Assembly: GCA_052168235.1 (NCBI GenBank)
Contig: JBQLZK010000067.1
Span: forward strand, 1 to 37,821
DNA: 37,821 nucleotides
Reading direction: 5' to 3'
From: Thainema sp.
Lineage (GTDB): Bacteria; Cyanobacteriota; Cyanobacteriia; Phormidesmidales; Phormidesmidaceae
The notes beneath the pieces were generated by a model. That model saw only the letters and a program-made list of their open reading frames with translations. It was not told where the DNA came from and did not search any database. The number at the start of each line of letters is the position of its first letter. Within the stretch, counting starts at the first letter, position 1. This document shows, in pieces, positions 2,908 to 37,821 of the stretch. A program made the position numbers and the translations under genes.

Positions 2908-4107
2908 TTATGCTGTAATGCTATGAGAGACAACAGCGGAATTTAAGATCATAGGCCAATCTTGATTCAGCATGAACTCAAGATGCTTGCGGAATTGCTC
3001 AATGCCAAATTGAGCAATCGCTCTGTTTCTTATCTTCATCCTTTGCTGGTTATCGTTCAGGTGCTGTTGGCGATGCAAGATATCAATCAGCGTTTGAGCA
3101 ATCTCTAAACTGCTATCTGGATTAATCAAATAGCCCTGTTTGCCGTGTTCAAGTGGATCGACTGCTCCGTCACAGTTCCCGGCTAACACAGGTTTGCCAC
3201 ATGCTAAGGCTTCTAAATAAACAATGCCAAAACCTTCCCCTTTACTTGGGAGGGCAAATACATCGCAGAGGTTATAGTGATCGCACAATTCTTCATCTGG
3301 GATGAATCCCGCTAGCGTGACAGCATCTTCAAGCCCTAACTGACAAATTAACTGCTGAATGCGAGGCGTATCATCTCCTTTACCCGCTAAAACATAGTGG
3401 ACATCAGGAATGTATTGGCGAATTGCAGGTAAAGCTCGTAGCACTTGGTCATAGCCTTTATAAGAGTCGAGCTTGCCTAAGCGGCTGACGGTTAAGATGA
3501 CGGGCTGTTGAGGATTTAGTCCATACCGTTTGAGCAAGTAGTCAGGTTTAGGCCCGATTTGGAACTGGGTTGGATCCAGCGTATTGGGCAAGACCGCGAC
3601 CTGTTGCGTTCCCAGAGCTTGTTCTTGTAATAAGCGATCGCGAGTAAATTGACTAACGGCAACGACTTGATCGGCCCGCTGTAATGCTTTTTGCAGGTGA
3701 GGACGCTGTAGATCCCAAACTTCAAGGCCGTGTGCAACCACCCAATAAGGAATACCGGCCATCTGCTTCAACCACTGACAGACCGGGCTGTAGTTGACGT
3801 GAGTTGTGATGATCAACCAAGGCTGCTGTTGAATCCCTTGCTTCAGCGTTTGACCCACCATCAGCATGGTTTGCACCCATCGTGGATAGTCACCAAGGCA
3901 GTGAAATCGGGTCTGGGGCAACAAGTGAAACTGATCATGAATGTGGTGTAGCCGATCATATTTCAAAAAAACATCATATTTAGCATCAGGATATAGCTGC
4001 TGAAGGGACTGCAAGAGAAAAATGGAGTAGACCTGAATTCCACCCTTGAAGCCGAAAATATTAGGAAATAGCAAAAAGAAATGAGGCTTCTGATTCAAAT
4101 TAGTCAT
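2908..4107 (-). CDS. Glycosyltransferase family 4 (GT-B fold)
   Basis: KGGIQ N-terminal loop, AHGLE, VSRL...YKG, and EGFGIVYLEALACGKPV (EX7E signature). Confidence 0.92.
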   Translation of the reverse strand: MTNLNQKPHFFLLFPNIFGFKGGIQVYSIFLLQSLQQLYPDAKYDVFLKYDRLHHIHDQFHLLPQTRFHCLGDYPRWVQTMLMVGQTLKQGIQQQPWLIITTHVNYSPVCQWLKQMAGIPYWVVAHGLEVWDLQRPHLQKALQRADQVVAVSQFTRDRLLQEQALGTQQVAVLPNTLDPTQFQIGPKPDYLLKRYGLNPQQPVILTVSRLGKLDSYKGYDQVLRALPAIRQYIPDVHYVLAGKGDDTPRIQQLICQLGLEDAVTLAGFIPDEELCDHYNLCDVFALPSKGEGFGIVYLEALACGKPVLAGNCDGAVDPLEHGKQGYLINPDSSLEIAQTLIDILHRQQHLNDNQQRMKIRNRAIAQFGIEQFRKHLEFMLNQDWPMILNSAVVSHSITA

Positions 4108-4221
4108 ACAGTTTGTTTCAGTTACAACACAATCAAATACAACACGACCAAAGTTGTCAAAGGTTTAGTGACAAGTATGGAAAACCTTTTCTCCCAAGAT
4201 AAGATCGGCTGACACTGGCTA

Positions 4222-4268
4222 TTGGTTCAGAAACTTTGAACCAATAAATGAGCTAAAATTTGGTCTAA
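4222..4268. promoter_or_regulatory. TGAGCYAA-type operator array 1
   Basis: TTGGTTCA(4222)-N7-TGAACCAA(4237), then TGAGCTAA(4249) and TGGTCTAA(4261) at 12-bp period. A -10-like TATACT lies at 4282. Confidence 0.6.
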
Positions 4269-4457: not shown

Positions 4458-4481
4458 ATTGATTTGGCTATTGATTTGGCT
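4458..4481. repeat. Perfect 12-bp tandem repeat ATTGATTTGGCT x2 upstream of the toxin gene
   Basis: Direct observation at 4458-4469 and 4470-4481. Confidence 0.7.
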
Positions 4482-4702
4482 GCTGCAGTAAGTAAGTTAT
4501 TTAGACGAAGCGAATCTCCGTTTGCTTTAACAATAACCAAATTGATTCATGCAAAAGCGCTATGGCCCTTACCTTATAAGGGTTTTAAGTCGCAAAAGGG
4601 TGGCTTGAGCAATATAGTTATAATTTTGACTTAGAAATCTACGTAGTTTAACGTAGCTAGAAGTTTCTCATCAAAGCTGAATGACTTTTGATCAGGTGCA
4701 AT

Positions 4703-7700
4703 ATGTCTCTTACAGAAGCTAATGGCTCAGGCATTGTTTCATCCCCATCTGGCGATCTAAACTTCATATCTGATAAAAGCTTTACCAATTTAGATCCCTA
4801 TTTACTCAACACCACACAAATTGGAGGACAGCAATCGTCAGGTAGTGGAGAGTCATTACTGCCATTTGATAGCCCAGAGAAGCTGAATCCCGCAGCAGAT
4901 CAGTTATCTATTCTTTTATCCAATCCAGGATATTCAGAGCTAGTAAATAGCGAGTTTACCAGTCAGAATATCGACTTAGTTGATGAAGCGGACACGCCAA
5001 CTGATACTTTAATAGGCCAAGATGAACTGACGGTAGGGTCTGTAGATACGATTGAGCCTTTGCTCTCCAATGTCATCACCTATTCTCCCTATGTTCCTGG
5101 AGTATTTGTAGCTGGAGACAGTGGTCAGGTATCCATTGATTTTTTGTTTGACGGTGGTGGATATTCTAATGGGCAAGTCGCTATCTTCAGCGTAGAAGGA
5201 ATGGATACGCTTGTGCCCGGATCTACCGCTTTTAATCAAGAAGCGGCTTATCGTGCACGCAGTAATTCAGAGCTTGGGCATATTGTAATCAATGATCGTA
5301 AAGAGGGTGCTCGGTTTAGTGGAATTTTAAACAATAACGATCCAGTAGATCGCAACGGTGGGGAATATTTGGGTCCAAAAACTTTCCAGATGGAGCCTGG
5401 CAGCCTTTTTGCTGTGATGCTAGTCCCAAATGGGAAAGTTCAAGATGTTTTGAATAATCCAGCAGTAGAAGGTGCAAAGAAGCCACTTTACTCCATTACA
5501 GATGCTAATCCTGGTGACACGACTCATCTTGGCCAAATGCTAGATGTGGTGGGCGATGGTACTACTTTTACCATGGAAGACCAGCGAACCGACGCTGGCT
5601 CAGATATGGATATGGATGACATCATCTTTAAAGTGAGTGGGGCCATTGGATACGCGCCGTTAATGTCAGACTCCATCAATCCAGATAACGATTGGCGTTA
5701 CAGTCCTCTCGGTCAGGAAATCCTTGCTTACGTGAGCACGAACGATAATCCTGAGAAGCTGATTCCTGATGAACCAGTACGAGATCCCATTCTGCCTGCG
5801 CCACAGATACCGATATCGATAACAGATCAGGGTAGTAATACGCTGACTGAACCAACACCAACTGTGAAGTCTCCGACTCAAGATATCATCGACCAGGTCA
5901 GCAGTAGTGATGCAACAGATACTTATCGGGTCAATGTTGATGAATTGACGGATACCCAGTTTACTGTCCTAACCGGGACAACAAAGGTCAGTATCCTTAA
6001 CTCATCAGGAACTTTACTTAGCTCGCAAACATTAACTAAGGGTAGCCATAGTCTGCTTTTGCCTGCTGGTGTCACCAACGATGCCTTGATCCAGGTTGAT
6101 CAGGTTGGTGATGCAACTGCAACTTATGTGCTGTCAGGTCTTGAGAGTCAGGCTGAGGAGCCTTTTAACATTGACCTGGAATTAGATGAAGGCCTCACAG
6201 CTTCACAGCAAGCAGTGATTAATGCAGCCGCTCAAAGCATTGAGGGTCTTATCCGGCAAGGGCTACCAAGCGCGATCGTAGATGGCAAAATCATTGATGA
6301 TCTCAACGTCAAGTTTAACCTCGGCACTCTGGATGGTGCAGGGGGAACGTTAGCGCAAACCAAGATTGACTTCATGCGCTACGGAATTCTGCTCCCAGCT
6401 CAATCAATTGTGCAGTTTGATCAAGATGACTTTGCGGATTTAGAGCAATCAGGGGAACTGTTCAACGTTGTCCAACACGAGTTGTTGCATGCCCTGGGGT
6501 TTGGCAACCTTTGGGAGGCAAAAGGTCTAGTTGACTACGCTAAAACACCATTCGCCCAGTACAACGGACAATATGCTCTCGCCGCCTTTAAAGAAGCAGG
6601 AGGAGCCACCAACTTTATTTCTCTGGATACAGAAGGCGAGGGCTCGGCTGATCTGCACTGGAATGAAAATCTGTTCCAAGATGAAATCATGACCCGGGAT
6701 TTGAATGCCCAGGGTGGTGATGCGGTAATTAGTCGAGTGACGTTGGCGTCCCTCAGGGATCTGGGCTATGTAGTGGACGCTGAAGGTGTTCCATCTGACT
6801 TGAGCTTGTCCCCAGAGGATATTCCTCAAGACTTCGTCACGGGTTTCACAGAAGAAGAAAAGTTCTCGCTGGCGCAATTAGTTGCTGATGCGGAGACCCA
6901 GGTCAGTAATGGAATTCCTGCGGTTGTGCCCACGGTGGATGCAAATGAGATTGCGCCTACCATTTGGGCTAATGCGGAGCGTTTCGACAAAAATGGCGAA
7001 TACTACGATTGGGAATGGGTCATTATTCAGCCAGGGAACACTATTAGCCAGTACGTCTACGATCGCATGACGGACCATACAGGCAGTGATAATCGCACTC
7101 GTTTACAGAAAGCGAGTGATCCAGCCTACTGGGCCTTCATTAGTGAGCGCAACGGATTTCCTGATCCTAACTGGATTGTAGCCGGTGATCCTGCTTGGCT
7201 TCCGGTTTGGCATCCTAACTATGAGCAGGAGCAAGAAGAAGAACGGAGGCGTCGTGAGGAAGAGCTGAGACAAAGAGAGGAAGAGGAAAGACAGCAACGA
7301 GAGAAACTGGAAGAAGCTTATCGCCAGAGTGGACAGGGCGGTCTAGAGTGGTATGTCGCTAAACCTTTGCCAGACTTCAGTACCTCTGCACCTTACACAA
7401 CAGAGATTCAAGATATTGTCGGCAATCTGGTGCCAGATGACTATTTCCGTTTCACGTTATCTCGTAATGGGCGAGTTACCCTCTATCTAGAGGACTTGCT
7501 AGCAGATGCTGATTTGTATTTGTATGACTCCCGAAATCGCCTGATTGGTAAGTCTGCTCGTGGTGGTCTGACGGACGAAAAGCTCATTCTAGATTTGGCG
7601 GCGGGAACTTACCTAGCTAGAGTCAATAGTCCAGGTGGAGTGACGACGGACTACAAATTGAAAGTGCAGTTTCAGGGACAGCTAACTCGCAGCCAAATGG

Positions 7701-9829
7701 GACCGCCTGTGGGGTGGGTTCCGGGTGTAGGTGTTCCGGGTGGCAGTGGCAGACCAAGTCCAACGTTCAGTGATCCACGAATCGAGCGGATCTTTACAAC
7801 CGCTAGAGATAAGTTTGCTAACGAGCAATGGGCGCAGGCTCAACCTCAGATTGATAGCTTGGAAGCGCAAAAACGGCAGAAGCAGAGAGAACTCGATCAG
7901 CTTTTAGCAGAAGCAATTGCTCAACAAAAGGCGAAGGTTAACGCCGCTCTCGACAATGTCAGAAATGATTTGACAGGAAGAATTTCTGGTATTGCTGATG
8001 GCATTAAGCACAACATCTATTGGGCTGCTGAGAATGGAATTAATGCAGTCAACTGGTTGGTACCTGGTTGGTTGCAGGACAAGCTCGACTGGTTAGGGCT
8101 AGGTGATGGAGTTCGCTCGGCTCAGGACACACTGCGTAATGCTATTCGGGGCGCGCGCGATTGGCTAAACTCACAGATTGATTGGGTTCGCAACCAGATC
8201 AATGGAGCCATCTCTCAATTTATTGAGATGGTTAAGAATGCCTATTTAACAGGAGCAGAGATTAATGCAGCAATTGACGGGGCTGCTAATTGGCTCAGAA
8301 GCAAGACCGATAGCCTGGTCAACTTCCTGAATGGCAAAATTGGTGAATTTAAAGGCTGGATCTTAGGCAAACTGGAGTGGACTAGAAACATCCGTACGCC
8401 GGATTGGGCAAGAAGGCTTGGTGTTCCCGACTGGAATCTGTATGACCATGCGATCGCAGGATTGGTTGATGGTGCTACTAGGGGCGTTCAAAGTGCAATC
8501 AGTGGCACGGGTAATCTCTTTAAGGGAGTACTGGATGTTGCTACGCCTCTAGCCCAAGGTGCTGTTGCGGTCATTGTTGACGCCATCTTTGGCGACCAAA
8601 CTGGCAGACTCTACAACGAAATCAATGGCATTAATCAGAAGATTTCATCTATTAAAGCAGGAGTACAGAAGGCAATCCAGGATCAGACTGCCTTTTACAA
8701 AAATCTATTGGACGGCTTCCTAAATGGTTTAGGGCAAGCCAAGGACTTTATTGTTGGCGCTTTGATGGGTGAGTTTAATAGTCAACCCTCGATCTGGCAA
8801 ACATTGTTAGATGCAGCCATCGGCATGATTCCTATTGTGGGAGAAATTGGCGACGTTCGTGATCTGATTGCATTCACAGCGAAGTTTATTAACGACCCCA
8901 ACGAAATGCAGGACTTCTGGAATTGGGTCGGTGTTGTCGGAGCTGGTATTGGTTTAGTTCCAGTAGTTGGGGGCGCAATTAAAGGGGTTACCAAGCTTGC
9001 CCGGAATGCTGATCTGATTACAGAGATTAGAAAGCTAGGCCCGACTATAGTTAATTCGGTAACTGATTTCGCACGGAAAACCGACTGGGCGGCACTTGGT
9101 AATAAGACTGCCGATTTTTGGGATAATATTCTCTCGACAGTGGAGAATATTACCAATGATCTTATAGAGGCTATGCAGAGATTTAAGAGTCTCATGCCTC
9201 AACTGAAGCTTTCTCCTCAGCCAGCTGGTGGAGTTTTACCTGATGAGGGCTTCTTTGCAAAGGTATTAGACGGAATTGATGAACTAAAAAGGATTAGTCG
9301 AGAGAAGATAGACGAAGCATTTGCGTTTGTTCAAGGTAAGTTTGACGAATTGGCCAGTAGTGGAGCTAAAGTCCTTTCTGGAAGTCCACCTTTCTCTCAG
9401 GACACTATTAGGCGATTTCTAGATGAAACAGAAAGTTTAGGAGAAGGTCATATATATGCAAGACATATTTCAACAGGAGATCTTGTAGCAGACCAGAAAA
9501 CACTTCAAACGCGTTTGGCTGATCGACAAAGAGGCTCATCTGAATACTATAAAGATGAGTTTTCGATGTTTTGGGACAAGCAATCTGCTACGCAAGTGAT
9601 TACACAAGCGATTAATTCTAAGTATTCAGAAATTGAAGCTTTGGTCAAGGCTAATCCTCAAAAGGCTGTGAAAAAAGAATTTTCTGTATCTGTTAATAGT
9701 TCTGATACTGCTTTTGGGATAAATTCCGTTGGCGAATATATTGAGTCTCAACTCACAGATATAAAGCTGGTAATAAAGACACGCGAAGATGGAAGTTGGT
9801 TTGTACTCACGGCTTATCCTATTATTTAG
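4703..9829 (+). CDS. Giant multidomain polymorphic toxin: DUF4114-like, zinc metallopeptidase, LysM-like, PPC, helical stalk, pre-toxin TG-like region, C-terminal RNase A-like (CdiA-CT type) domain
   Basis: MEDQRTDAGSDMDMDDIIF (DUF4114-like); HELLHALGF..HW..EIMT..SRVTLASLRDLGY (leishmanolysin/M8-like); IQPGNTIS..ISERNGFPDPNWIVAG (LysM-like); DYFRF..DADLYLYD..AGTYLARV (PPC); IGMIPIVGEIGD..GLVPVVGGAIKG (PT-TG-like); GHIYARH..WFVLTAYP (RNase A-like toxin). ATG 4703 preferred over TTG 4688. Confidence 0.8.
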   Translation: MSLTEANGSGIVSSPSGDLNFISDKSFTNLDPYLLNTTQIGGQQSSGSGESLLPFDSPEKLNPAADQLSILLSNPGYSELVNSEFTSQNIDLVDEADTPTDTLIGQDELTVGSVDTIEPLLSNVITYSPYVPGVFVAGDSGQVSIDFLFDGGGYSNGQVAIFSVEGMDTLVPGSTAFNQEAAYRARSNSELGHIVINDRKEGARFSGILNNNDPVDRNGGEYLGPKTFQMEPGSLFAVMLVPNGKVQDVLNNPAVEGAKKPLYSITDANPGDTTHLGQMLDVVGDGTTFTMEDQRTDAGSDMDMDDIIFKVSGAIGYAPLMSDSINPDNDWRYSPLGQEILAYVSTNDNPEKLIPDEPVRDPILPAPQIPISITDQGSNTLTEPTPTVKSPTQDIIDQVSSSDATDTYRVNVDELTDTQFTVLTGTTKVSILNSSGTLLSSQTLTKGSHSLLLPAGVTNDALIQVDQVGDATATYVLSGLESQAEEPFNIDLELDEGLTASQQAVINAAAQSIEGLIRQGLPSAIVDGKIIDDLNVKFNLGTLDGAGGTLAQTKIDFMRYGILLPAQSIVQFDQDDFADLEQSGELFNVVQHELLHALGFGNLWEAKGLVDYAKTPFAQYNGQYALAAFKEAGGATNFISLDTEGEGSADLHWNENLFQDEIMTRDLNAQGGDAVISRVTLASLRDLGYVVDAEGVPSDLSLSPEDIPQDFVTGFTEEEKFSLAQLVADAETQVSNGIPAVVPTVDANEIAPTIWANAERFDKNGEYYDWEWVIIQPGNTISQYVYDRMTDHTGSDNRTRLQKASDPAYWAFISERNGFPDPNWIVAGDPAWLPVWHPNYEQEQEEERRRREEELRQREEEERQQREKLEEAYRQSGQGGLEWYVAKPLPDFSTSAPYTTEIQDIVGNLVPDDYFRFTLSRNGRVTLYLEDLLADADLYLYDSRNRLIGKSARGGLTDEKLILDLAAGTYLARVNSPGGVTTDYKLKVQFQGQLTRSQMGPPVGWVPGVGVPGGSGRPSPTFSDPRIERIFTTARDKFANEQWAQAQPQIDSLEAQKRQKQRELDQLLAEAIAQQKAKVNAALDNVRNDLTGRISGIADGIKHNIYWAAENGINAVNWLVPGWLQDKLDWLGLGDGVRSAQDTLRNAIRGARDWLNSQIDWVRNQINGAISQFIEMVKNAYLTGAEINAAIDGAANWLRSKTDSLVNFLNGKIGEFKGWILGKLEWTRNIRTPDWARRLGVPDWNLYDHAIAGLVDGATRGVQSAISGTGNLFKGVLDVATPLAQGAVAVIVDAIFGDQTGRLYNEINGINQKISSIKAGVQKAIQDQTAFYKNLLDGFLNGLGQAKDFIVGALMGEFNSQPSIWQTLLDAAIGMIPIVGEIGDVRDLIAFTAKFINDPNEMQDFWNWVGVVGAGIGLVPVVGGAIKGVTKLARNADLITEIRKLGPTIVNSVTDFARKTDWAALGNKTADFWDNILSTVENITNDLIEAMQRFKSLMPQLKLSPQPAGGVLPDEGFFAKVLDGIDELKRISREKIDEAFAFVQGKFDELASSGAKVLSGSPPFSQDTIRRFLDETESLGEGHIYARHISTGDLVADQKTLQTRLADRQRGSSEYYKDEFSMFWDKQSATQVITQAINSKYSEIEALVKANPQKAVKKEFSVSVNSSDTAFGINSVGEYIESQLTDIKLVIKTREDGSWFVLTAYPII

Positions 9830-9841
9830 ACTTAGAAAAGC

Positions 9842-9897
9842 AGCATATATAGCGTTGGCCATGTGGAAATTGACATTTGGCCAATGCTATATATGCT
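9842..9897 (+). terminator. Long hairpin 3' of the toxin gene (terminator or stabilising stem; could also be an operator)
   Basis: 20-nt arms AGCATATATAGCGTTGGCCA / TGGCCAATGCTATATATGCT. The single mismatch is a G-U wobble on the + strand. Confidence 0.6.
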
Positions 9898-10177
9898 CTC
9901 CTTTCACCCAAACTTACCTGTCAATAAAATCTAATAACTAAAAACCGACTTTTGCTATCGAAAAGACTAACACTCCGGGCAGTTTTTGAAAGTCAACGAG
10001 AAAATGCGGATTGTAGCACTCTTTTGTGGCTATCAAGCGAACAATAAATTCAAGGTTTCAGTGCTTGCCCATAAAATTGACCAGACTATTGAAAGACGTA
10101 TTTATCTGAATAAATACGACTAATGGGAAAAATAGCTGTAGTCCCCCTTTTCGATTTGTGATGTATTTGATAAAGCT

Positions 10178-11350
10178 ATGAGTAAAAAGGTCACAGCTCA
10201 CCTGTATGGAGAATTTCTTGCTTTCAACCGACTCATATTGCTCATAGCAACCCTTGCTCGATTTCCTGGAGTTGGTTGTCTGCATTCTGATGCTTCCATT
10301 CAAGAGAAACAGTCTGCACTAAGAGAAGTTCAGGAATATATGCAGCAAGTGGCTATGAGCCAAGGCATAACTTTACCTGAATACTCCATTCACACGCTGC
10401 GAAAAGATCTGGAGTGCTTAAAGCGCTACGGTATTTTGGAAAAGCGGCGCTATCGATGGGGTTACTATCTAGGCATTGGGGTCATGAATCGCCAGGAGTT
10501 GCAGGTTGCCCTCAACGTATTGGAATCCAAAGCGAAGTATCAACGCGATCCTACCGCGAGTCAGGTTTACCAGTCCGTGACACGCAGAATGGGGGGAGCC
10601 AAGCATCAGTCAGAACTGCTCTACCCTGTGCGAGCGCAGCTGAACAAGTCTATCGTTCACACTGACCCTGATGACCTAATAACGAAGGCGCACTATCGTC
10701 AAACCCTTTTCCATGAAATAGAAACGGTTGAACGTTGCATTCTACAGGGGACAGCACTTCAACTTTGCCGCACCCGTGATCCCTATGGGTCAATGGGGAA
10801 AGGCAGCAAGTTAGTTTATCCACTACAAATTGTTCACTACAACAATGCTTGGTACTTGCTCTACGAGCACTGTGATGATGGTTACCTAGCGATTGAAAGA
10901 TTCGACCGCTTTGATGATAACTGCCAAGTCATTACATCCAATACGCGTAGCATAGCTGATCAAAGAAAAAGTTTAGAAGAAGCTCACAACCTCTTACAAG
11001 CAGGTTGGGGGGTATATCTGGGGCAACCGGCAGAACAAAAACTAGAACGTGATGGTAAACTCGATTTTTTTGAAGTAAAAGCTCGTTTTTTTGGTAATGC
11101 TATACCGTTTATTCTGGAAGGAGATCGCCGTCATCCTACTCAAGAAATTATAGAGGGTCCATATATAGGCAACGGCAATTATGAATATGTTGACTACATT
11201 GTTAGCCTGCCTCCACGAGCTTTCACTGAATTTAGCTACTGGATTTACAAATACATCGGCAAGGTTAAGGTGCTATCTCCACTTGGGCTTGTCAAACAAC
11301 ACCATGATTTACTGCAGCAGGCTCTCAAAATCTACTCATCTGATTTATAG
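10178..11350 (+). CDS. WYL-domain transcriptional regulator (N-terminal wHTH, WYL, WCX)
   Basis: HTLRKDLECLKRYG (wHTH), VYPLQIVHYNNAWYLLY (WYL), ERFDRF, WIYKYIGKVKVLSP (WCX). Confidence 0.9.
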   Translation: MSKKVTAHLYGEFLAFNRLILLIATLARFPGVGCLHSDASIQEKQSALREVQEYMQQVAMSQGITLPEYSIHTLRKDLECLKRYGILEKRRYRWGYYLGIGVMNRQELQVALNVLESKAKYQRDPTASQVYQSVTRRMGGAKHQSELLYPVRAQLNKSIVHTDPDDLITKAHYRQTLFHEIETVERCILQGTALQLCRTRDPYGSMGKGSKLVYPLQIVHYNNAWYLLYEHCDDGYLAIERFDRFDDNCQVITSNTRSIADQRKSLEEAHNLLQAGWGVYLGQPAEQKLERDGKLDFFEVKARFFGNAIPFILEGDRRHPTQEIIEGPYIGNGNYEYVDYIVSLPPRAFTEFSYWIYKYIGKVKVLSPLGLVKQHHDLLQQALKIYSSDL

Positions 11351-11759: not shown

Positions 11760-13172
11760 TTGTGTGAGGAAACGCACATGGTGGGAACTCTTATAGAAAA
11801 GAGTGCAATCTGCCGAAATATGACTCATCAAGAAATACTGCCTAACAGACTCAGGTTATCTGAAGCTGGCCGAAAGCAAATTGATTCAGTATTAAAGAGA
11901 TTAGGCTGGGGAAAACAATCTCCAGCTTGGGCTGCACAGGCAAATGTATCAATATCAACTTTGAAGCGCTTTAGATCTAGACAGTATTTGAAGCTTGAAG
12001 TCTTCCAAAGTATTTGTGATCCACTAGGGCTCTCTTGGAAAGATCTTGCTGAATTAACTACAACAGGTGAAGCAGAGGATTCAGACACTATTTGGGTTGG
12101 CAGACGTGAGATAGTTGATCAGCTTGCTAAAGACATTAAGCAATGTCGGCTGTTGATTGTAACAGGCATTACTGGAATTGGAAAAACTGCCTTAGTAGAT
12201 TATGTGACTAGACCAATCAGGTCTGAATACTCATATATTATAACTTTAAATTTTGAATCTGAACCTTACTTACAATTTGCCGACGCAGCACTGGATATAT
12301 TAAGGAAAATGTCTCAGTTAGAGACAGAAGAAGAGCAAAATCAACCAGAGAAACTGTTAGGTCGATGTATACAGCTATTAGCAGATAATAAGTGTCTAAT
12401 TATTATTGACTCACTAGAGCAAATACTAGAAGGAGATGAGATCACAGGATGGAGCAACTTTTATGATCCTCTCTGGGAAAGTTTTTTTCATCGATTGCTT
12501 GGCAAGGATATCTGTCATAGTAGAGTTATCATTACGACTCAAGACTTACCTCAAGCAGTATGGATATATGGTCAAAGGTATGATAGTAGATTTTCTCATA
12601 TTCCATTGAAAGGTTTGAGTACTAGTGAGCAAGTACTCTTTTTTCAAAAGCATGGATTTGAATTTAGATCCAATAGCTTAGAGCATCAATACTTCGTTCG
12701 TATTGGAGCTGTGTATGAAGGTCATCCTCTAGCACTTCGGGTAGTTTCTGGTGATATTTGGATGAACTTTGATGGTGAAGTTTCAGCTTATTGGCAGCAA
12801 TACCACGAGAAAATTGAAGCTGTCGAAAGGCAGCATGAAGAGCTAGAGATAGATCGATATTCGCGTAATCTTCATATGCTAGTAAGATTACGCATTGATG
12901 AATCCTTATCTCGTCTCAGCCGCGATATTCATGACGCATATTTTCTTGCTTGCTTAGTGTCTGTATATCGAGAACCCTTCACCAATGAATTTCTATTCAA
13001 ATCAATAGAAGAGTTTGGATTTTCGTATGAAAAATACGAAAAATGTTTAAACACTTTACTTGATAGATCTCTTTTAGAAATTACACATGATTGCTATATA
13101 AGGCAGCACAATTTAATTCGTAGTGTAGCTAAGGATCATTTAGAAAATTCTGAAATAGAGGAATTTGACTGA
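11760..13172 (+). CDS. HTH-NB-ARC (STAND) ATPase without a fused sensor domain; true start may be ATG 11778 or 11820
   Basis: Xre-like HTH WAAQANVSISTLKRF..ICDPLGLSW; Walker A GITGIGKT; Walker B LIIIDSLE; GHPLAL (GxP); QHNLIR (MHD-like). Confidence 0.88.
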   Translation: MCEETHMVGTLIEKSAICRNMTHQEILPNRLRLSEAGRKQIDSVLKRLGWGKQSPAWAAQANVSISTLKRFRSRQYLKLEVFQSICDPLGLSWKDLAELTTTGEAEDSDTIWVGRREIVDQLAKDIKQCRLLIVTGITGIGKTALVDYVTRPIRSEYSYIITLNFESEPYLQFADAALDILRKMSQLETEEEQNQPEKLLGRCIQLLADNKCLIIIDSLEQILEGDEITGWSNFYDPLWESFFHRLLGKDICHSRVIITTQDLPQAVWIYGQRYDSRFSHIPLKGLSTSEQVLFFQKHGFEFRSNSLEHQYFVRIGAVYEGHPLALRVVSGDIWMNFDGEVSAYWQQYHEKIEAVERQHEELEIDRYSRNLHMLVRLRIDESLSRLSRDIHDAYFLACLVSVYREPFTNEFLFKSIEEFGFSYEKYEKCLNTLLDRSLLEITHDCYIRQHNLIRSVAKDHLENSEIEEFD

Positions 13173-13174
13173 AT

Positions 13175-14602
13175 ATGGTTAAACATAAGGATAATGAAAC
13201 AGAATCTATTGATTTAATTTTAATTAACTTTATACCAGAAAATTTAAAACACTTAGTTCAGAACTTCAGTCTAGATTTAGGCAAGAAAAGTAGGTATAAA
13301 GTATGCCACTGGGTGGCATTGAAAAGCCATATCAAAGAAATTAATTTTGAGATTTTTAGATATCAAGAAATAAAGAATTTAAATCATATATTTGAAGCAT
13401 GCTATCATGCACGCGCTTTACACAATTGGGATCTTGTACATATATTAATGTGTTTGCCTATCGGGAAGAACAAAACTGAATTTCATCAGCGAATTGGAGA
13501 ACAAGGTGAATATTTTAAGCAAATTGAATTATACAAGACAGCATATAATCAAATTAACACAGATTTTGACTTGATTTGCTTAGATGGTTTAGGTCAGGCT
13601 TATCGTATATCAGGTAACTATGACGAAGCTCTAAAATGTCACAAGAAACAATTAAAGCTTGCTCAAGAAATAGCGGATATAAATCATAAAATGCTCGCTC
13701 ATAGAGGTTTAGGAAAAATCCATTATGATCAACATGCTTATAGACTTTCGCTTGATCACTTTAAAAAGCAGTACAGTTATAGCCAAATATGCAGTGATGT
13801 AGAGCAACAAATAGATGCTTTGTGTAGGATCGGACGAGCTTACATAAACATAAATAGAAATAATCGAGGAATAAAACATATAAGAACTGCTCTAAAATTA
13901 GCAGTTACTTTAGATAGCAAAAGCATTGAAAGCATTGTTTTATCAGAGCTGGCATATGGATATTTTTGGGGAGGCAATCCGGATACAGCAATTGAATATA
14001 CTAAAAATTTAATTAATTATTTATCTCTAGAAGACAATCCTAAAAGCTATTTTAATACTATTCGAAATTTAGGACAAATTTATATCTACAAAAATGATGT
14101 AAATAAAGCAAATTTTTATTTAAATAAAGCATTGGATATTAGCCAAAATCTAAATGATAGATATATGAGATTTATGATTCTCATGGATTTAGCTTTGCTA
14201 CATAACCAGTGCCAACATAGAAGCGATCTGTCAATTCTTTTTGCAGAAGAAGCACTTCTAATTTCTTATCAATTTGGTCTTACAGTATGTATTGCACACT
14301 GCCATTCTTACTTAAGTATCTTTCATGCTGATTTAGGTCAAATAAAACAGGCTCATGAGCATATTCAAAAAGCCACATATTTATATAAAAATAGCTCAGA
14401 GCTAGCTAATCCAGAAGAGCGTTTAATATTACAAGCTTGCTTAGGCAAATTTTATTGGATCAGTGGGCAAAAATTTAAAGGAGTATTAGCTGTGATTTAT
14501 GGACTAATAGTATGTCCCCCATGGAAATATTTGAATAGTCGATGGATTTTACGTGAAATGCTGATAACTGTTGTTCCTTTATTTAATCAGGCAAAAAAAT
14601 AA
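13175..14602 (+). CDS. Tetratricopeptide repeat protein
   Basis: Repeated TPR units such as LDGLGQAYRISGNYDEALKCHKKQLKLAQE and IRNLGQIYIYKNDVNKANFYLNKALDI. Starts 2 nt after the NB-ARC stop. Confidence 0.88.
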   Translation: MVKHKDNETESIDLILINFIPENLKHLVQNFSLDLGKKSRYKVCHWVALKSHIKEINFEIFRYQEIKNLNHIFEACYHARALHNWDLVHILMCLPIGKNKTEFHQRIGEQGEYFKQIELYKTAYNQINTDFDLICLDGLGQAYRISGNYDEALKCHKKQLKLAQEIADINHKMLAHRGLGKIHYDQHAYRLSLDHFKKQYSYSQICSDVEQQIDALCRIGRAYININRNNRGIKHIRTALKLAVTLDSKSIESIVLSELAYGYFWGGNPDTAIEYTKNLINYLSLEDNPKSYFNTIRNLGQIYIYKNDVNKANFYLNKALDISQNLNDRYMRFMILMDLALLHNQCQHRSDLSILFAEEALLISYQFGLTVCIAHCHSYLSIFHADLGQIKQAHEHIQKATYLYKNSSELANPEERLILQACLGKFYWISGQKFKGVLAVIYGLIVCPPWKYLNSRWILREMLITVVPLFNQAKK

Positions 14603-14625
14603 ACCTAACTACGAAGTCTATCATC

Positions 14626-16070
14626 ATGAGACGATCAGTGTTTTTGATGGCTATACTGTATTTTGTGCAAGCAGCTTCTATTGCACCTGGTTTAGCACAT
14701 CTTCCTGTAGCTAAATTTCTTGAGGGAGAACTAAATTTTGATGCTATCCAGCTGTCATGGTTTCAGGAAGTTATCCTTATACCTTGGTTTTTCAAGCCTA
14801 TTTGGGGAATTTTAGCTGATACTGTCCCATTAATGGGATATTTTATCAAGCCATATTTTTTTATTTGCTATGGCTTGATTTTGAGCAGTTTTTTAACTTT
14901 AAGCCAGCTAAATTTTTATACAGTCAATGTCTTACTGGCAGCGAGCTTAATTATTTCAACAAGCATTTCTTTTACAGATGTTTTAACAGATCGCTTGATG
15001 ATCGTTCAAGGAAAACGATTAAACGCGATAAGCTTACTGCAAGCTACTCAGTGGATTGGGTTAGGATTTAGTGCTATGGGAGTATATGTTTGGGGAGGAT
15101 GGCTAGCAGATAACGCTTCTCTTTCAACAGCTTTTCTTCTCAGTACTGTTATTCCTTGCATTGGTATCATAGTTATTTCTAAATTTATAGATGAGCCTCT
15201 TAAGCAAGAGCGAATTTTGCTAAAACAACACTTGAAAAACTTGAAAGAATTTATATTATCCAATCAAGTTTTATCAATTTTCATTTTGGTCATATGTATT
15301 GGAATTACTCCAAAAACTCCTATTTGGACTAGCGGGGGCATTTGAGCAGAAACCTACGGTTTCGTCTGAAACTCTTTCAGGACAGGGATTTCAAAGCTAG
15401 CTGCTTCTCCTGAATATTTGCTGGCTCATGCAACTACTCTTCTGGCTTTAGGGCGTTTCACCATCCATACTCAACGAAAAACCAAGGGGTTCAGAGTATA
15501 ACTAGTAAGCGATATAGTCCAATCGTAGTCCAAAATTTCATAACTGTAGGTTTCTGTTCAAATGCCCCCGCTAGTCCTATTTATTTTCATAGCAAAGAAT
15601 TATCTTTTTCTGATGAAACTATTGGATATTTGAAAGCAGTTGAATTTTTAGGTGTTGGTATAGGGTCTGCTCTTTATCTATGCTTCAGACGATGTTTAAA
15701 TACAAAAAATACGTTGATAAATATTGTTTTGTTTAGTACGCTTAATCCGTTAAGCTTTATCATCTTAGATAGTTCGAATTTGGGCTACTCGTTTGCTTCA
15801 TTCTTTATATCTGGAATTACTCAAATTATTGTATTTTTGGGAATTTCAAACCTTTTTGCTGAAGCAAATTTAAACGGCATTGAAGGTACGGCATATGCTT
15901 TATTTGTATCAGTTCTAAATTTTGTGTTTAGCGTAGGATTTATATTAGGCAGCTATTTATATGATCAAGGCACACATTTTAATTTTTTAGTAGAAATATC
16001 TTCTATATCTACTCTATTGTTTGGTATTCTTGCCTTGATTTTAAGACCTTTAGATTCTTTCGAAGCCTAA
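14626..16070 (+). pseudogene. MFS transporter (BT1 folate/biopterin-like), interrupted by a MITE
   Basis: IPWFFKPIWGILAD, FTDVLTDRLMI and GIEGTAYALF motifs. Removing 15326-15582 joins the two track ORFs in frame (..KTPIYFHSKELSFSDETIGYLKAV..), giving 395 aa. Confidence 0.88.
15326..15577. mobile_element. 252-bp non-autonomous element (MITE) with 32-bp TIRs and 5-bp target-site duplication
   Basis: TIR GGACTAGCGGGGGCATTTGA(G/A)CAGAAACCTAC at 15326-15357 and 15546-15577 (1 mismatch). TATTT duplicated at 15321-15325 and 15578-15582. Confidence 0.95.
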
Positions 16071-16079
16071 AAAATTATT

Positions 16080-16111
16080 TGAGCTAAGTATTGAGCTAAA
16101 TATTGAGCCTA
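16080..16111 (+). promoter_or_regulatory. TGAGCYAA-type operator array 3, upstream of the nfeD-like gene
   Basis: TGAGCTAA(16080), TGAGCTAA(16092) and TGAGCCTA(16104) at 12-bp period, followed by -10-like TAATAT/TAAACT. Confidence 0.65.
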
Positions 16112-16181
16112 TTAGCCATCAGAAATAATATAAACTTTAGAATAATAATCTAACAAGTTGTTTGGTGGAGATTAATAGATT

Positions 16182-16427
16182 ATGTCTTGCTTCACTGTAT
16201 ATTCTCTAGAGTTATTTCCATCTGCTGTCACAGGTCTAGCAGTTCAGCCTATTAGTTTGAAAGTGAGCGGACGTGTGAGCTACCGTGCATCTTCATGGCC
16301 TGCACGACTTTATCAAGTGAAAAAAGACTGTTTAGTCTACTCTGGACAAGCAGTTAAGATTGTTGGCAGAGAGGGAATTACACTTTTGATACAGCCATTG
16401 CAGGCAGATGTTGATCTCAATGAATGA
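16182..16427 (+). CDS. Small NfeD-like (OB-fold) protein
   Basis: GRVSYRASSWPAR..GQAVKIVGREGITLLIQP pattern; GGAG RBS. Confidence 0.8.
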   Translation: MSCFTVYSLELFPSAVTGLAVQPISLKVSGRVSYRASSWPARLYQVKKDCLVYSGQAVKIVGREGITLLIQPLQADVDLNE

Positions 16428-19643: not shown

Positions 19644-19970
19644 CTAGCTGTCTAAGTTCTGATCACGAGCATCTTCAAAGCGATCAGTTAACTGATTCAG
19701 CGTTTCAATCCGCTCTTGCTCAAACCGATCCGACAGACTATTGAGGGTTTGAATGCGTTCCTGCTTGAACCGATCATTCAAGCTTTTGTTCAGCACCTCA
19801 TCGCGGGACTCGTCGAAGCGATCGGTGAGTTGATTCAGCGTCTCGATACGCTCGTTTTCAAAGCGGTCAGTCAGTTTGGTTTGGGTGGAGAGTTCAGCGG
19901 CACCGGCAGCGGGAGCAACAACAGCAGCAGCGATCGCAAGAATGGAGAGGTTAGCGAGTAGAGATTTCAT
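19644..19970 (-). CDS. Secreted small protein: signal peptide plus five 15-16 aa LxDRF repeats
   Basis: Sec signal MKSLLANLSILAIAAAVVAPAAGA; repeats LTDRFENERIETLNQ etc.; AAGGAGG RBS; downstream hairpins at about 19521-19541 and 19589-19613. Confidence 0.8.
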   Translation of the reverse strand: MKSLLANLSILAIAAAVVAPAAGAAELSTQTKLTDRFENERIETLNQLTDRFDESRDEVLNKSLNDRFKQERIQTLNSLSDRFEQERIETLNQLTDRFEDARDQNLDS

Positions 19971-35301: not shown

Positions 35302-35362
35302 TTTAACAAGATTTGCAACAATCGCAGATTTTGCACATATCGCTACATGAGGAAACTGATTT

Positions 35363-36031
35363 ATGGCAACAGCCGCACCCCCTCAAATGAACTGGCGCGT
35401 TGGTCAAACGGGGATCTCGTCAAACGGAGCCGCCCGCGTCAATGATGAATTTCGCGTTGATATCAATAAGCTGGGTCGCCTCACCCCGTCTGAGGTTCGC
35501 GCTCAATCGCAACTAGCTAAGGATCTGCGTCAGCAGGTCGTTTTGGCGAAGCAATATAAGACCGCTAGCGAGGACGTGATTAAATCCAAAGTCACGATTG
35601 AAGAGCTGCGTACTGACCTGCTCGCTAAAGGATTAGAAGGTGCGAAAGCCGTCGATAACCTGGTCAGCCGCGCCCAGTTGCAAACCGGACAATACATGCA
35701 ATCACTGCAAACCACTGCTCACGCAACTCAGTTGGGCTTAAGTGCGATCGCAGAAAGCGGTCAGATGGAACGCGACACACTCACAACCAAATATCAGTTA
35801 AAAGCGCAACAGGCTCGACAGCTTCAAGCCTCAAAGCTCCAGCAGATGGGAACCAGTATGGGCAAGGAAACCCAGATGAAGCTGGATGACGCTCGGCAGA
35901 AAGCGGCAGCTAAGGAGCAACAGAAACAGGAAGAAATTGCGCTGAAGCGCTACATCCGAGCCGATGACTATACGCCCAACACAGGCAAAGCTCCAGGCCC
36001 GTTCCAGCGCATTCTCAATCTGGTGGCATAG
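35363..36031 (+). CDS. Helical/coiled-coil protein (222 aa), first gene of the transfer-like operon
   Basis: GAGG RBS; Q/A/K-rich helical sequence. Confidence 0.75.
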   Translation: MATAAPPQMNWRVGQTGISSNGAARVNDEFRVDINKLGRLTPSEVRAQSQLAKDLRQQVVLAKQYKTASEDVIKSKVTIEELRTDLLAKGLEGAKAVDNLVSRAQLQTGQYMQSLQTTAHATQLGLSAIAESGQMERDTLTTKYQLKAQQARQLQASKLQQMGTSMGKETQMKLDDARQKAAAKEQQKQEEIALKRYIRADDYTPNTGKAPGPFQRILNLVA

Positions 36032-36042
36032 GGTTAGTTGCT

Positions 36043-36612
36043 ATGTATACCCACGAGCATAATCCTGAACTAGAGCGACTTAGAGCGTTGCAGGAATCTG
36101 CGATCGCAACTCCTCCCCATCCTGAAGTTCCGACTTGGAACTACCACACGATCAACCGAGCGGGTTCGATGTTCGGTCTGCTGTTCGGCAGTTGGATGTT
36201 TCTCACGTTCCTGGCTCGGCTTCTGCCTGACTTTGCGTTCATCTACCTGATTCTGACTGGAGCCGGATTACTGGCCTGTTTCTACGTTGCGATCGCAGGT
36301 CATCCCAACCTGTTCACGCTAGTTGGAATCACAGCCTTTGGCGTCATCATCGCCACGCTGCTGGCCAGTTGGGATCTACTTCTGGGGCTGTTCTATTACC
36401 AAGGCAGTCCCATTTGGAAATTCTTCATTGTTGCGATGGGGTTTGTCTTGAGCGTGGGTCTGTTTCGATTGTTCTTCAACATTCGACGACCCAAAGCGCA
36501 GCAACAAACTCCGGTCGAATCGCAGCAAACCCAATCCGAACAAGCCTATGACGCTGCCTGGCAAGCGTATTTGCAACAATGGACTTCTCAATCCACCGAC
36601 AATCCATCTTGA
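36043..36612 (+). CDS. Four-TM membrane protein (189 aa)
   Basis: Four hydrophobic segments; 3' end overlaps the start of the FtsK-like gene. Confidence 0.78.
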   Translation: MYTHEHNPELERLRALQESAIATPPHPEVPTWNYHTINRAGSMFGLLFGSWMFLTFLARLLPDFAFIYLILTGAGLLACFYVAIAGHPNLFTLVGITAFGVIIATLLASWDLLLGLFYYQGSPIWKFFIVAMGFVLSVGLFRLFFNIRRPKAQQQTPVESQQTQSEQAYDAAWQAYLQQWTSQSTDNPS

Positions 36613-37821
36613 TCTATCAAGCAGCGGGTGTGTTCGGACTGCTAATTGCCTCCTGGGGACGGCTTGATCCAACCGTCGTCACCCCGGCTGGTCAGCGGTT
36701 GCCGCATTGGGCGGTAACTAACCGTGCTCAAATTGCAGCCATCTATGCACCGGATAGCTGGTCAAAAATGGCTGGCATCATGATTGCGATCGCAGGATTC
36801 GGTAAGGCATACCAAACCAGCAAGATAGCCGAAAAAGACGAGCGGGAGCTGTTGCGCCAGCTCAATCATGAGTTGCGACTGCGAGCGGTTCGAGAGCAGG
36901 AAGAACTCCAGCGGCAACTGCTGGCCAGCTCCGAAATGCTCAAGATTGCTCAAGTGGTGGAGAACCTGCGAGCTGAAGAGAAAGGTGATGAGGAGATTGC
37001 CGCGATTCTCGGCATTGACGTAGCTGAACTGAAAGCGCTGGGTGCTCCCCAGCCGGAAGCGTTACCCGCTCAAGCCGTGTCACGGGAAAATGACACATCG
37101 GAGCCACGGATACCGAATCCGCCCGACGATCCAACCGTGCATGGACTTTTGCAGGCGACGCTGAAGGCACTTCACAAGGCAAATTACTATGCCGACTATG
37201 TGACCTGCTTCAAAGGGCCATCGTTCATCCAGTTCATCCTGGAGATGCGAGACCCGAAAAAACTACCAGAAGCCATTGATAGAACCCCATCAATCGTCCA
37301 GGCCAGTTTGCACCTGCCCAAACTGCCCATGTCAGACAACGAGCATGGTTTCTTATCCTTGTCGCTGGCACGACCCGACCGGGAGCTGCGGAAGCTGGCA
37401 GACGAGATTGACGATATCCCAGTCCCTAAGCGTCCATCGCTGTTCCTGGGTGTTGACCTAAAAGAAATCAGGCACTACATCCATCTGGACGGTAAAGAAA
37501 TGGAGGCCGTCTTAATCGGTGGTCTGCCCCGTGTGGCTGGCAAGACCAACCTGATCCGGCAGATGATCGGCTTCGCCGCCAAAAACTACTCATACCGTCA
37601 CATTCAGTTTCTCGTCTTTGACGGCAAAGGAACTGAGCTGAACCCGCTCAAAAATTCGCCCTATCTGGCTGAATGGCCATCGACCGCTAACCGCTTGGTC
37701 GGGCATTCAGAAGAGGACGCAGAATTGCAGCTTCAGTGGGTCGAGCAGGACATCGAAAACCGTCGCAGCCTATTCGCCTATCAAGGTGTGTCCAACATTG
37801 AGGACTTTAACCACCTCGAAG
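36579..37821 (+). CDS. FtsK/SpoIIIE-family ATPase, N-terminal part (continues across the junction to 695); not in the ORF track
   Basis: Open from ATG 36579 (MDFSIHRQSILIYQAAGVFGLLIASW..): two hydrophobic segments, coiled coil, GPSF, LFLGVDL, Walker A-like LIGGLPRVAGKTN, FLVFDGKGTEL (cf. IDPK..EL), DIENRRSLF. Confidence 0.88.
   Translation, partial: MDFSIHRQSILIYQAAGVFGLLIASWGRLDPTVVTPAGQRLPHWAVTNRAQIAAIYAPDSWSKMAGIMIAIAGFGKAYQTSKIAEKDERELLRQLNHELRLRAVREQEELQRQLLASSEMLKIAQVVENLRAEEKGDEEIAAILGIDVAELKALGAPQPEALPAQAVSRENDTSEPRIPNPPDDPTVHGLLQATLKALHKANYYADYVTCFKGPSFIQFILEMRDPKKLPEAIDRTPSIVQASLHLPKLPMSDNEHGFLSLSLARPDRELRKLADEIDDIPVPKRPSLFLGVDLKEIRHYIHLDGKEMEAVLIGGLPRVAGKTNLIRQMIGFAAKNYSYRHIQFLVFDGKGTELNPLKNSPYLAEWPSTANRLVGHSEEDAELQLQWVEQDIENRRSLFAYQGVSNIEDFNHLE
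37771..37821. repeat. Terminal direct repeat, right copy (circular-assembly overlap)
   Basis: Identical to bases 1-51. Confidence 0.97.

Follow-up and report, generated by a model that had tools for sequence, protein, structure and literature searches.

Leishmanolysin-like proteins with exchangeable tips form a probable polymorphic toxin family of cyanobacteria, typically paired with an arginyl-tRNA synthetase fragment

In the accessible part of their comparative survey (PMC3482391), polymorphic toxin systems join a constant body to a pre-toxin module and to tips from one pool (AHH, EndoU, Ntox30, Ntox44, C39 and RNase A-like), with tip-matched immunity at some loci. The same part describes the PVC-metallopeptidase toxins, which occur in free-living cyanobacteria and in which a conserved HExxH peptidase stands before variable tips, autoprocessing is proposed and an immunity gene is often missing. 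Herein we analysed a gene of Thainema sp. (GCA_052168235.1) located at positions 4703..9829 (+ strand) of contig JBQLZK010000067.1, where "the window" denotes the entire contig (C67, 37,821 nucleotides). The open reading frame (ORF) starts at an ATG (an in-frame TTG at 4688 would lengthen the product by 5 amino acids, aa), has no internal stops and encodes a protein of 1,708 aa without cysteine, present only once in the 7.5-Mb genome, an assembly of 205 contigs that is 99.99% complete. Its relatives share the constant body, the pre-toxin module and the tip pool of polymorphic toxins and, at some loci, have tip-matched immunity-like genes, and we are highly confident that they form a polymorphic toxin family, a conclusion far surer than any single mechanism discussed below. 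What appears to be new here is a class of polymorphic toxins built on a leishmanolysin-like (M8) body, with a fragment of arginyl-tRNA synthetase (ArgRS) as partner and the working logic of known polymorphic toxins.

The family is defined by a whole-length search in which 7,989 candidates were scored and 91 proteins besides the query were found; P0084-P0092 were set aside for the absence of the helical stalk described below, leaving 82 relatives and the query (83 proteins). In segment searches the M8 peptidase, LysM-like unit, coil, PPC domain and stalk each recurred in 81-86 of the 91, while the pre-toxin module was found in 43 and the window tip in only 3, so that the C-terminus, on whose variability the preliminary description had staked its case, does differ among homologues. 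When the 83 proteins are compared by their last 130 aa, 34 clusters result (some of these ends being those of partial genes), and precomputed Pfam assignments, 8 of which were rechecked, place named tip families in 23: AHH in 10, EndoU in 5, RNase A-like in 4, and Ntox30, Ntox44, nucleotidyltransferase and C39 in one each. Two levels of exchange are seen, one ahead of the pre-toxin module and the other at a junction of the form GK(L/F)DEL. P0002, for example, is 90-93% identical to the window toxin over aa 900-1260 and 22-37% identical past aa 1380, whilst P0003 carries a tip 70-79% identical to that of the window. The N-termini vary as well, with optional DUF4114, PPC and S8 subtilase domains. 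Cysteine makes up 0.02% of family residues versus 0.82% in long ORFs of the window genome, a depletion of ~40-fold that points to export. The family is rare (a toxin match at E<1e-100 in 7 of 400 other genomes of a phylum-wide sample) and, as had been proposed, cyanobacterial: 21 of the 22 named genome loci lie in cyanobacteria, the remaining one being a 5.7-kb contig of a metagenome-assembled genome (MAG), close to Nostoc members. Contig L033 is assigned to a Bacteroidota MAG, its toxin is ~80% identical to a Nostoc member, and it is likely a mis-binned cyanobacterial contig. None of 33 pattern matches in viral contigs was confirmed. A separate observation concerns the toxin at L045:5477-14224, which apparently bears two tandem tips, one like that of L031 and then an EndoU-like one.

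The swappable tip of the window toxin (aa 1551-1708; 9353..9829, +) has a GC content of 37.6%, versus 46.2% for the toxin gene. The RNAse_A_bac profile (PF18431) matches aa 1597-1706 with 40 bits (cut-off 27), and 45.6 bits across profile positions 1-113 when the tip is scanned alone. Searching the tip against PDB sequences returned nothing real, and it was the fold search that made the match: the model of aa 1341-1708, built from 18 sequences and with a predicted local distance difference test score (pLDDT) mostly of 84-96 in the tip, gave two matches at E<=0.001, both of them chains of 5E3E, the CdiA-CT toxin of Yersinia kristensenii (template modelling score 0.77, root-mean-square deviation 3.0 Å, 20% identity). 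The RNase fold anticipated in the preliminary description is therefore borne out at the level of the model, and the tip is predicted to be an RNase A-fold ribonuclease of the CdiA-CT Ykris type. Residues of interest are His1583, His1588, Arg1604, Thr1703 and Tyr1705. Of these, His1588, Thr1703 and Tyr1705 align, by motif, with His175, Thr276 and Tyr278, which the accessible part of PMC5435912 gives as required for activity of the Yersinia toxin, and His1583 is the counterpart of the second, paired His argued for in this toxin type in the accessible part of PMC7297114. The two proteins thus share the tip fold, the paired His and a terminal T-x-Y-P strand, but the window toxin has no CdiA filament, no CdiB and no CdiI; of the features that mark contact-dependent inhibition (CDI, type Vb secretion), neither a two-partner secretion (TPS) domain nor haemagglutinin repeats, CdiB or CdiI was found with it. 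Among candidates of 81-259 aa, 0 of 12 proved to be stand-alone tip homologues, longer forms not having been searched.

Directly ahead of the tip lies the exchangeable pre-toxin module (aa 1341-1550; 8723..9352, +), with two hydrophobic stretches, long helices and then the junction motif FVQGKFDEL (aa 1542-1550); a GK(L/F)DEL motif stands 105-165 aa ahead of the C-terminus in 14 of the 24 proteins checked. The segment had been likened to PT-TG (PF14449), with which it shares the position ahead of the tip and Gly-rich hydrophobic helix pairs. Membership did not hold up: no PF14449 match was obtained at E<=1, a PT-TG cluster of the Atlas at 0.83 being the only lead, and the likeness is one of resemblance only. 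The segment presumably also lacks the TG signature of PT-TG.

The constant body carries the domains that had been read from the sequence, now mostly with profile or model support. Its acidic, Ser/Thr-rich N-terminus (aa 1-120; 4703..5062, +) is poorly conserved and contains neither a signal-like stretch nor the leader motif of the family. A DUF4114-containing region follows (5063..5737, +; Pfam at aa 230-313, E 1.4e-16), optional in the family (60 of 91 matches), and then a modelled beta-sandwich without a Pfam family (aa 385-482; 5855..6148, +), conserved in 85 of 91. The M8 zinc peptidase (6155..6772, +) displays H592-E593-x-x-H596, a third His at 652 and Met 663, its HELLH at aa 592 corresponding to nt 6476, where an HExxH had been noted. 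Peptidase_M8 scores 17.3 in the whole protein, below the cut-off of 21, and 22.7 on the isolated domain, above it, and the peptidase model matches leishmanolysin 1LML (Foldseek, E 5.6e-5), which upholds the proposed peptidase type. HExxH, distal third His, Met-turn and fold match are all present, for the catalytic part only and at moderate to low model confidence; family-wide, HExxH is intact in 83 of 83 proteins and the third His in 82 of 83. Next comes a LysM-like beta-alpha-alpha-beta unit with an insert (aa 766-836; 6998..7210, +), modelled at pLDDT ~80-90. The suggestion of a LysM domain is backed only by this fold and by weak PF01476 matches at the same position in 5 of 28 relatives scanned, Pfam having given no LysM match on the window copy. 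The E/R/Q-rich coil (aa 840-876; 7220..7330, +) is modelled as a single 37-residue helix, in agreement with its earlier description, and measures ~40 aa versus ~100 aa in most relatives; a correspondence between coil length and the ArgRS partner was considered and dropped, P0002, of the window clade, having a long coil. A PPC beta-sandwich with a collagen-binding-domain-like fold (7394..7678, +) was recovered both by Pfam (aa 913-976, above cut-off, as for DUF4114) and by modelling, and the constant body ends in a conserved Trp-rich stalk (~aa 1020-1330; 7760..8692, +) common to 81 of 91 matches. The Trp-richness is plain (18 Trp in aa 1001-1500), whilst the helical fold of the stalk is inferred from sequence, with weak apolipoprotein-like matches. 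Together, the model of aa 380-1000 (built from 56 sequences) comprises beta-sandwich, peptidase, LysM-like unit, one long helix and PPC sandwich, and its Foldseek matches are to collagen-binding domains, PPC domains and 1LML.

No export signal was found on the window copy. The absence of a signal peptide, RHS and haemagglutinin repeats noted at the outset was confirmed (best 11-residue hydropathy 0.38; no RHS or haemagglutinin match in domain scans of the toxin). The toxin holds no known trafficking domain, and the body of the family fits none of the trafficking signatures in the available part of Table 1 of PMC3482391 (signal peptide, TpsA, PAAR/VgrG, LXG/WXG, PVC-metallopeptidase, SpvB, PrsW, MuF). 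It further differs from those systems in its lack of RHS/FilH repeats, in the immunity gene being mostly absent and in its conserved ArgRS-fragment partner. By analogy, and as far as the accessible part of that source goes, the family appears most to resemble in logic the PVC-metallopeptidase (DUF4157) toxins of extracellular contractile injection systems (eCIS), but its peptidase is M8-like (HExxHxxGF...HW...M) rather than of the HExxHxxQ-E type, no phage-tail genes were recognised nearby, and it has extra LysM-like, PPC and stalk modules. That the leaderless copies are themselves cargo of an eCIS we consider most improbable. The window genome does contain an eCIS-like locus with four phage-tail tube (gp19) genes on another contig (G000:C29:63111-66286), and tube genes occur in 4 of 5 other toxin genomes tested; however, genome G330, with a leaderless toxin, gave no tube gene match, the clustered neighbours of toxin loci included no recognised eCIS gene, DUF4157 had no match, and folded beta-sandwich binding domains would be of little use in tube cargo. 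A type VI secretion system (T6SS) is not indicated either, there being no VipB match in the window genome, and by the features tested the family is not CDI, T6SS, type VII secretion or eCIS.

A conserved companion of the toxin is a truncated ArgRS paralog. Two of the 22 genome loci end within the toxin and the other 20 carry a downstream gene of 340-400 aa, as do L055 and L106; outside the window clade the ArgRS fragment was found at 22 of 22 loci with downstream DNA. What it retains is the DALR domain and the later half of the catalytic domain; it is likely catalytically dead, because the HIGH motif and N-domain are gone and the KMSKS region is altered. Across a 401-genome sample, the genomes with the fragment at E<1e-80 were precisely the 7 other toxin genomes, against 0 of the 394 remaining; related carriers are not independent, yet the carriers span several families. 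G640 and G742, which came from a second sample of 401 genomes and may duplicate known loci, were left out of the counts. A further 212 genomes of the first sample had matches, all at E>1e-24, and among the matches listed (70 rows lie beyond these) the weaker ones are full-length ArgRS, in frames of 564-692 aa at 21-31% identity. The fragment resembles actinobacterial NrtL (NF045898) and, in the accessible part of its description, eukaryotic DALRD3, in having a C-half catalytic domain plus DALR without N-domain or HIGH, but it scores 39-56 bits where the NrtL cut-off is 340, and it makes up a cyanobacterial family of its own, narrow (11 clusters at E<=1e-30) and tied to the toxin gene.

Immunity genes are mostly absent. 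At 18 of 22 loci the ArgRS fragment begins 33-494 bp past the toxin with no immunity-sized ORF between them, even after AHH and Ntox44 tips. Genes of 105-129 aa separate toxin and fragment in L038, L046 and L047, and L051 has a longer insert; immunity-like candidates are those of L038, L046, L047 and L054. In L047 and L054, two distant carriers, EndoU tips 53% identical are followed by HEAT-like genes of 130 aa that are also 53% identical, a pairing in sequence that is the hallmark of tip-specific immunity. Beyond the ArgRS fragment, L040:15177-15984, L044:16379-17185 and L045:15890-16696 each contain two small genes, conserved as a pair, whose products measure 135-141 aa and 125 aa; they gave no Pfam match and together look like an orphan toxin-immunity cassette.

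Among relatives, 34 of the 83 proteins start with a basic stretch and the motif FxL(E/D)xI(L/I)TPS, and gene context points to a leader-dependent export route through an M50-family membrane peptidase and an HlyD-type adaptor. The M50 gene lies within the fetched flank at 8 of 22 loci plus L055, with the adaptor in 4; M50-adjacent toxins with an intact start bear the leader, whereas leaderless loci with an intact start have no M50 nearby. Strong matches to this M50 type occur in 27 of 401 genomes, 5 of the 7 toxin genomes among them; it is missing from G330, G388 and the window genome (G000), where the toxins are leaderless. It resembles the intramembrane HExxH maturases of peptides made by ribosomes and modified after translation (RiPPs; daptide, YydH/LiaK) with their HlyD adaptor (NF041824, 145 bits; also NF058609), but stays under the cut-offs (300 and 225), has neighbours of 1,400-2,700 aa rather than peptides, and is absent from the window genome. 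M50 loci of other genomes have large leader-bearing neighbours in 4 of 6 regions fetched, one ending in M23 plus lysozyme. The leader, as FxLExILTPS, resembles LEPRxLL; the NCBIfam model LEPR-XLL gave no match on 5 N-termini at E<=0.5. Several further observations attach to this context. Just downstream of the toxin locus, L039:8031-11702 and L051:15986-18631 hold a second leader-bearing DUF4114-S8 protein, whose leader in L039 reads LEPRLTPS, which we take to be the closest to the LEPR-XLL motif. Large Cys-poor leader-bearing proteins stand beside the M50 gene at L107:10768-14970 (-), L108:7320-13211 (-), L110:8086-12765 (+) and L109:102-1940 (-), with the architectures S8-LysM-LGFP-M23-lysozyme, DUF4114-S8, and Ig/dockerin/propeller with a hydrophobic end, the last followed by two similar 278-aa genes; they are possibly a wider effector set on one export route. 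A conserved gene of 115-145 aa with a weak PEP-CTERM-like stretch lies between M50 gene and cargo in L032, L034, L035, L052, L055 and L107, and bigger genes of PEP-CTERM-like type are found close to the toxin in L043, L046, L047 and L051. Finally, relatives 56-58% identical to the GT4 glycosyltransferase that diverges upstream of the window toxin (2908..4107, -) adjoin the M50/HlyD genes in L051 and L112, and whether this enzyme is tied to the toxin is uncertain.

The window toxin belongs to a 12-member clade (SH-aLRT support 97 in a quick tree by this approximate likelihood-ratio test), all 12 of which are leaderless, with at least 10 mutually dissimilar tips and only 3 that are similar. The gene context of the clade rests on two loci, the window and L054, the metagenome scan having given one locus from 120 stretches; both have a WYL/WCX-type gene and no ArgRS fragment, and by sequence the window copy is part of a derived leaderless clade whose two known loci are without the partner. 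Just past its stop lies a strong hairpin (9842..9897, +; 20-bp arms, 95% complementary, z -7.9), within a 348-bp gap that has no + strand ORF above 50 aa, hence no immunity gene, and in which a sigma-70 promoter scan stayed at chance level (3 vs 1.7). The WYL/WCX-type predicted regulator follows (10178..11350, +), its orthologue in L054 being 67% identical and placed after a toxin-immunity pair. The WYL neighbour invites a reading in which, in this clade, the toxin has become an intracellular plasmid-defence or addiction module under the WYL regulator, its peptidase freeing the RNase to kill an infected host cell. The WYL gene is next in 2 of 2 known clade loci, the contig has type I restriction-modification (R-M), PIN, HNH and STAND-TPR genes, and no export signal was found on the window toxin; nevertheless we hold this to be very doubtful, given that PADLOC has no match for the toxin, that extracellular-type domains, a membrane-insertion-like module and zero cysteine are kept, and that L054 has an immunity-like gene.

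A search of 172 other genomes from the same taxonomic family, the one congener included, yielded no copy of the peptidase region (0 of 172), and for this reason the toxin gene was probably acquired. The same rarity, together with the lack of immunity gene, leader and partner (an immunity-like gene is retained in its clade-mate L054), would suit a decaying or silent passenger that lost these elements and is not expressed or not exported. We judge this quite unlikely for the window copy: its 5.1-kb frame is uninterrupted and keeps every predicted catalytic residue, the 12 clade members are leaderless throughout yet have varied tips, and P0003 has the same tip at 74% identity, which suggests selection.

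We put at roughly 60% the probability that the window gene encodes an exported antimicrobial toxin whose tip is freed by its own M8 peptidase and delivered into a neighbouring microbe. This reading starts from the modular exchange, tip fold, conservation and zinc ligands observed, and infers binding, cleavage, export, caging and target. The LysM-like and PPC domains would bind cell wall or sheath and the stalk would project the tip; the M8 peptidase, in line with the processing role suggested earlier, would cut near the GK(F/L)DEL junction, and the hydrophobic pre-toxin helices would insert in the target membrane so that the RNase passes into the neighbour. Until that cut, the producer would hold the tip in a caged state. 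Leader-bearing relatives would likely be exported via the neighbouring M50 peptidase and HlyD-type adaptor, with the ArgRS fragment as a likely non-catalytic helper in the producer (a chaperone or a tip-independent safety catch). The window copy, because leader, partner and immunity gene are lacking, would need a host export route or release by lysis, plus a tip caged until cleavage. Several results weigh against this scheme. Model confidence is lowest in the M8 domain (pLDDT 30-70 over its C-half), which lies ~860 residues from the tip, and in the tip the candidate Arg1604 is 16 residues past His1588 where Yersinia Arg186 is 11 past His175. In about a dozen relatives the C-terminus is hydrophobic or pre-toxin-like, with no recognisable enzyme, and some of these may be partial genes. 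As regards self-protection, no immunity gene follows the window toxin, and 18 of 22 partner-bearing loci have none between toxin and fragment; genome-wide matching found no leader, M50-type partner (9 generic M50 matches, none to the partner profile at E<1e-3) or ArgRS fragment in the window genome, nor did tip, pre-toxin and stalk queries find orphan tip cassettes there.

The distance between peptidase and tip also fits an alternative in which the M8 domain cuts sheath, S-layer or surface proteins of the target, or serves as a weapon in its own right, and the organisms targeted are distant (such as other bacteria or grazers), hence the few immunity genes. Binding domains of LysM-like and PPC type flank the peptidase, an arrangement like that of secreted hydrolases; an S8 subtilase is added in many relatives, S8, LysM, M23 and lysozyme domains occur in proteins that bear the same leader, and 18 of 22 loci have no immunity gene. 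On the other side, a nuclease produced in the cytoplasm would still need caging, and immunity-like genes, where present, pair with the tip, as in kin conflict, so that we regard target digestion as unlikely. Extending the scheme of an exported, self-activated toxin to the whole family, filamentous cyanobacteria may own a toxin class with leader/M50/HlyD export, M8 activation and a dead ArgRS fragment that keeps the toxin safe or fit for export, as a single tip-independent catch replacing cognate immunity, in which the window plasmid lineage dropped the partner and the export route also carries lysozyme- and M23-tipped exoproteins; we offer this only tentatively.

No description of the architecture, the ArgRS partner or the export pair was found in the literature searched, in keeping with the earlier suggestion of a possibly undescribed class, with the limit that PMC3482391 and two bioRxiv supplements could list members. 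The words "leishmanolysin" and "DUF4114" do not occur in the main text of PMC3482391, a term search of the main text of a PT-TG survey gave no mention of cyanobacteria (10.1101/2025.10.01.679605), and the accessible part of a review of synthetase paralogs contains no such ArgRS fragment (PMC9437257). A large toxin screen, in the part available, found few new tips in cyanobacteria and reports tips of Microcoleaceae without the window-family architecture (10.1101/2021.10.19.465003). Protein-based antagonism in cyanobacteria is thinly described, and the family offers a concrete weapon candidate in cyanobacteria that form mats, crusts and blooms (Microcoleus, Nostoc, Spirulina, Symploca, Limnoraphis), with a conserved body usable as a marker for mining unnamed tips and, in the M50/HlyD pair, a candidate export route for large cyanobacterial exoproteins. 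The tight link of a toxin to a tRNA-synthetase fragment is the most surprising part, though the window copy is without the partner; that copy makes the carriage of a nuclease tip without an immunity gene directly testable.

As to its setting, the window has a terminal overlap of 51 bp (1-51 and 37771-37821), for which reason we regard the contig as circular. Given these ends, the presence of genes for ParA, an integrase, type I R-M, PIN and HNH proteins, and a backbone (35313-37821 plus 1-2650) that matches stretches of contigs C9 and C87 at 76-91% identity, it is most likely a plasmid, and by sequence the genome contains a set of related plasmid-like elements (C67, C9, C87). Two named plasmid records bear further members of the toxin family. 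Among the sequencing runs listed as holders of the sequence none is of RNA. Short contigs from sequencing runs cover parts of the toxin gene, none of them 9180-10315, and have no bearing on the tip or the gap. Upstream of the toxin, a perfect 12-bp tandem repeat (4458-4481) and a 10-bp inverted repeat (4220-4246) are possible regulator sites. Further along, the low-GC stretch 11760-16427 (31-38%) with a helix-turn-helix STAND NTPase, a TPR protein, a BT1/MFS transporter in two ORFs (14626-15345 and 15630-16070, perhaps a split gene) and an NfeD-like gene is possibly a separate island, and 19644-19970 encodes a protein of 108 aa whose start is signal-like and which has internal repeats, with related copies on at least 6 other contigs of the genome.

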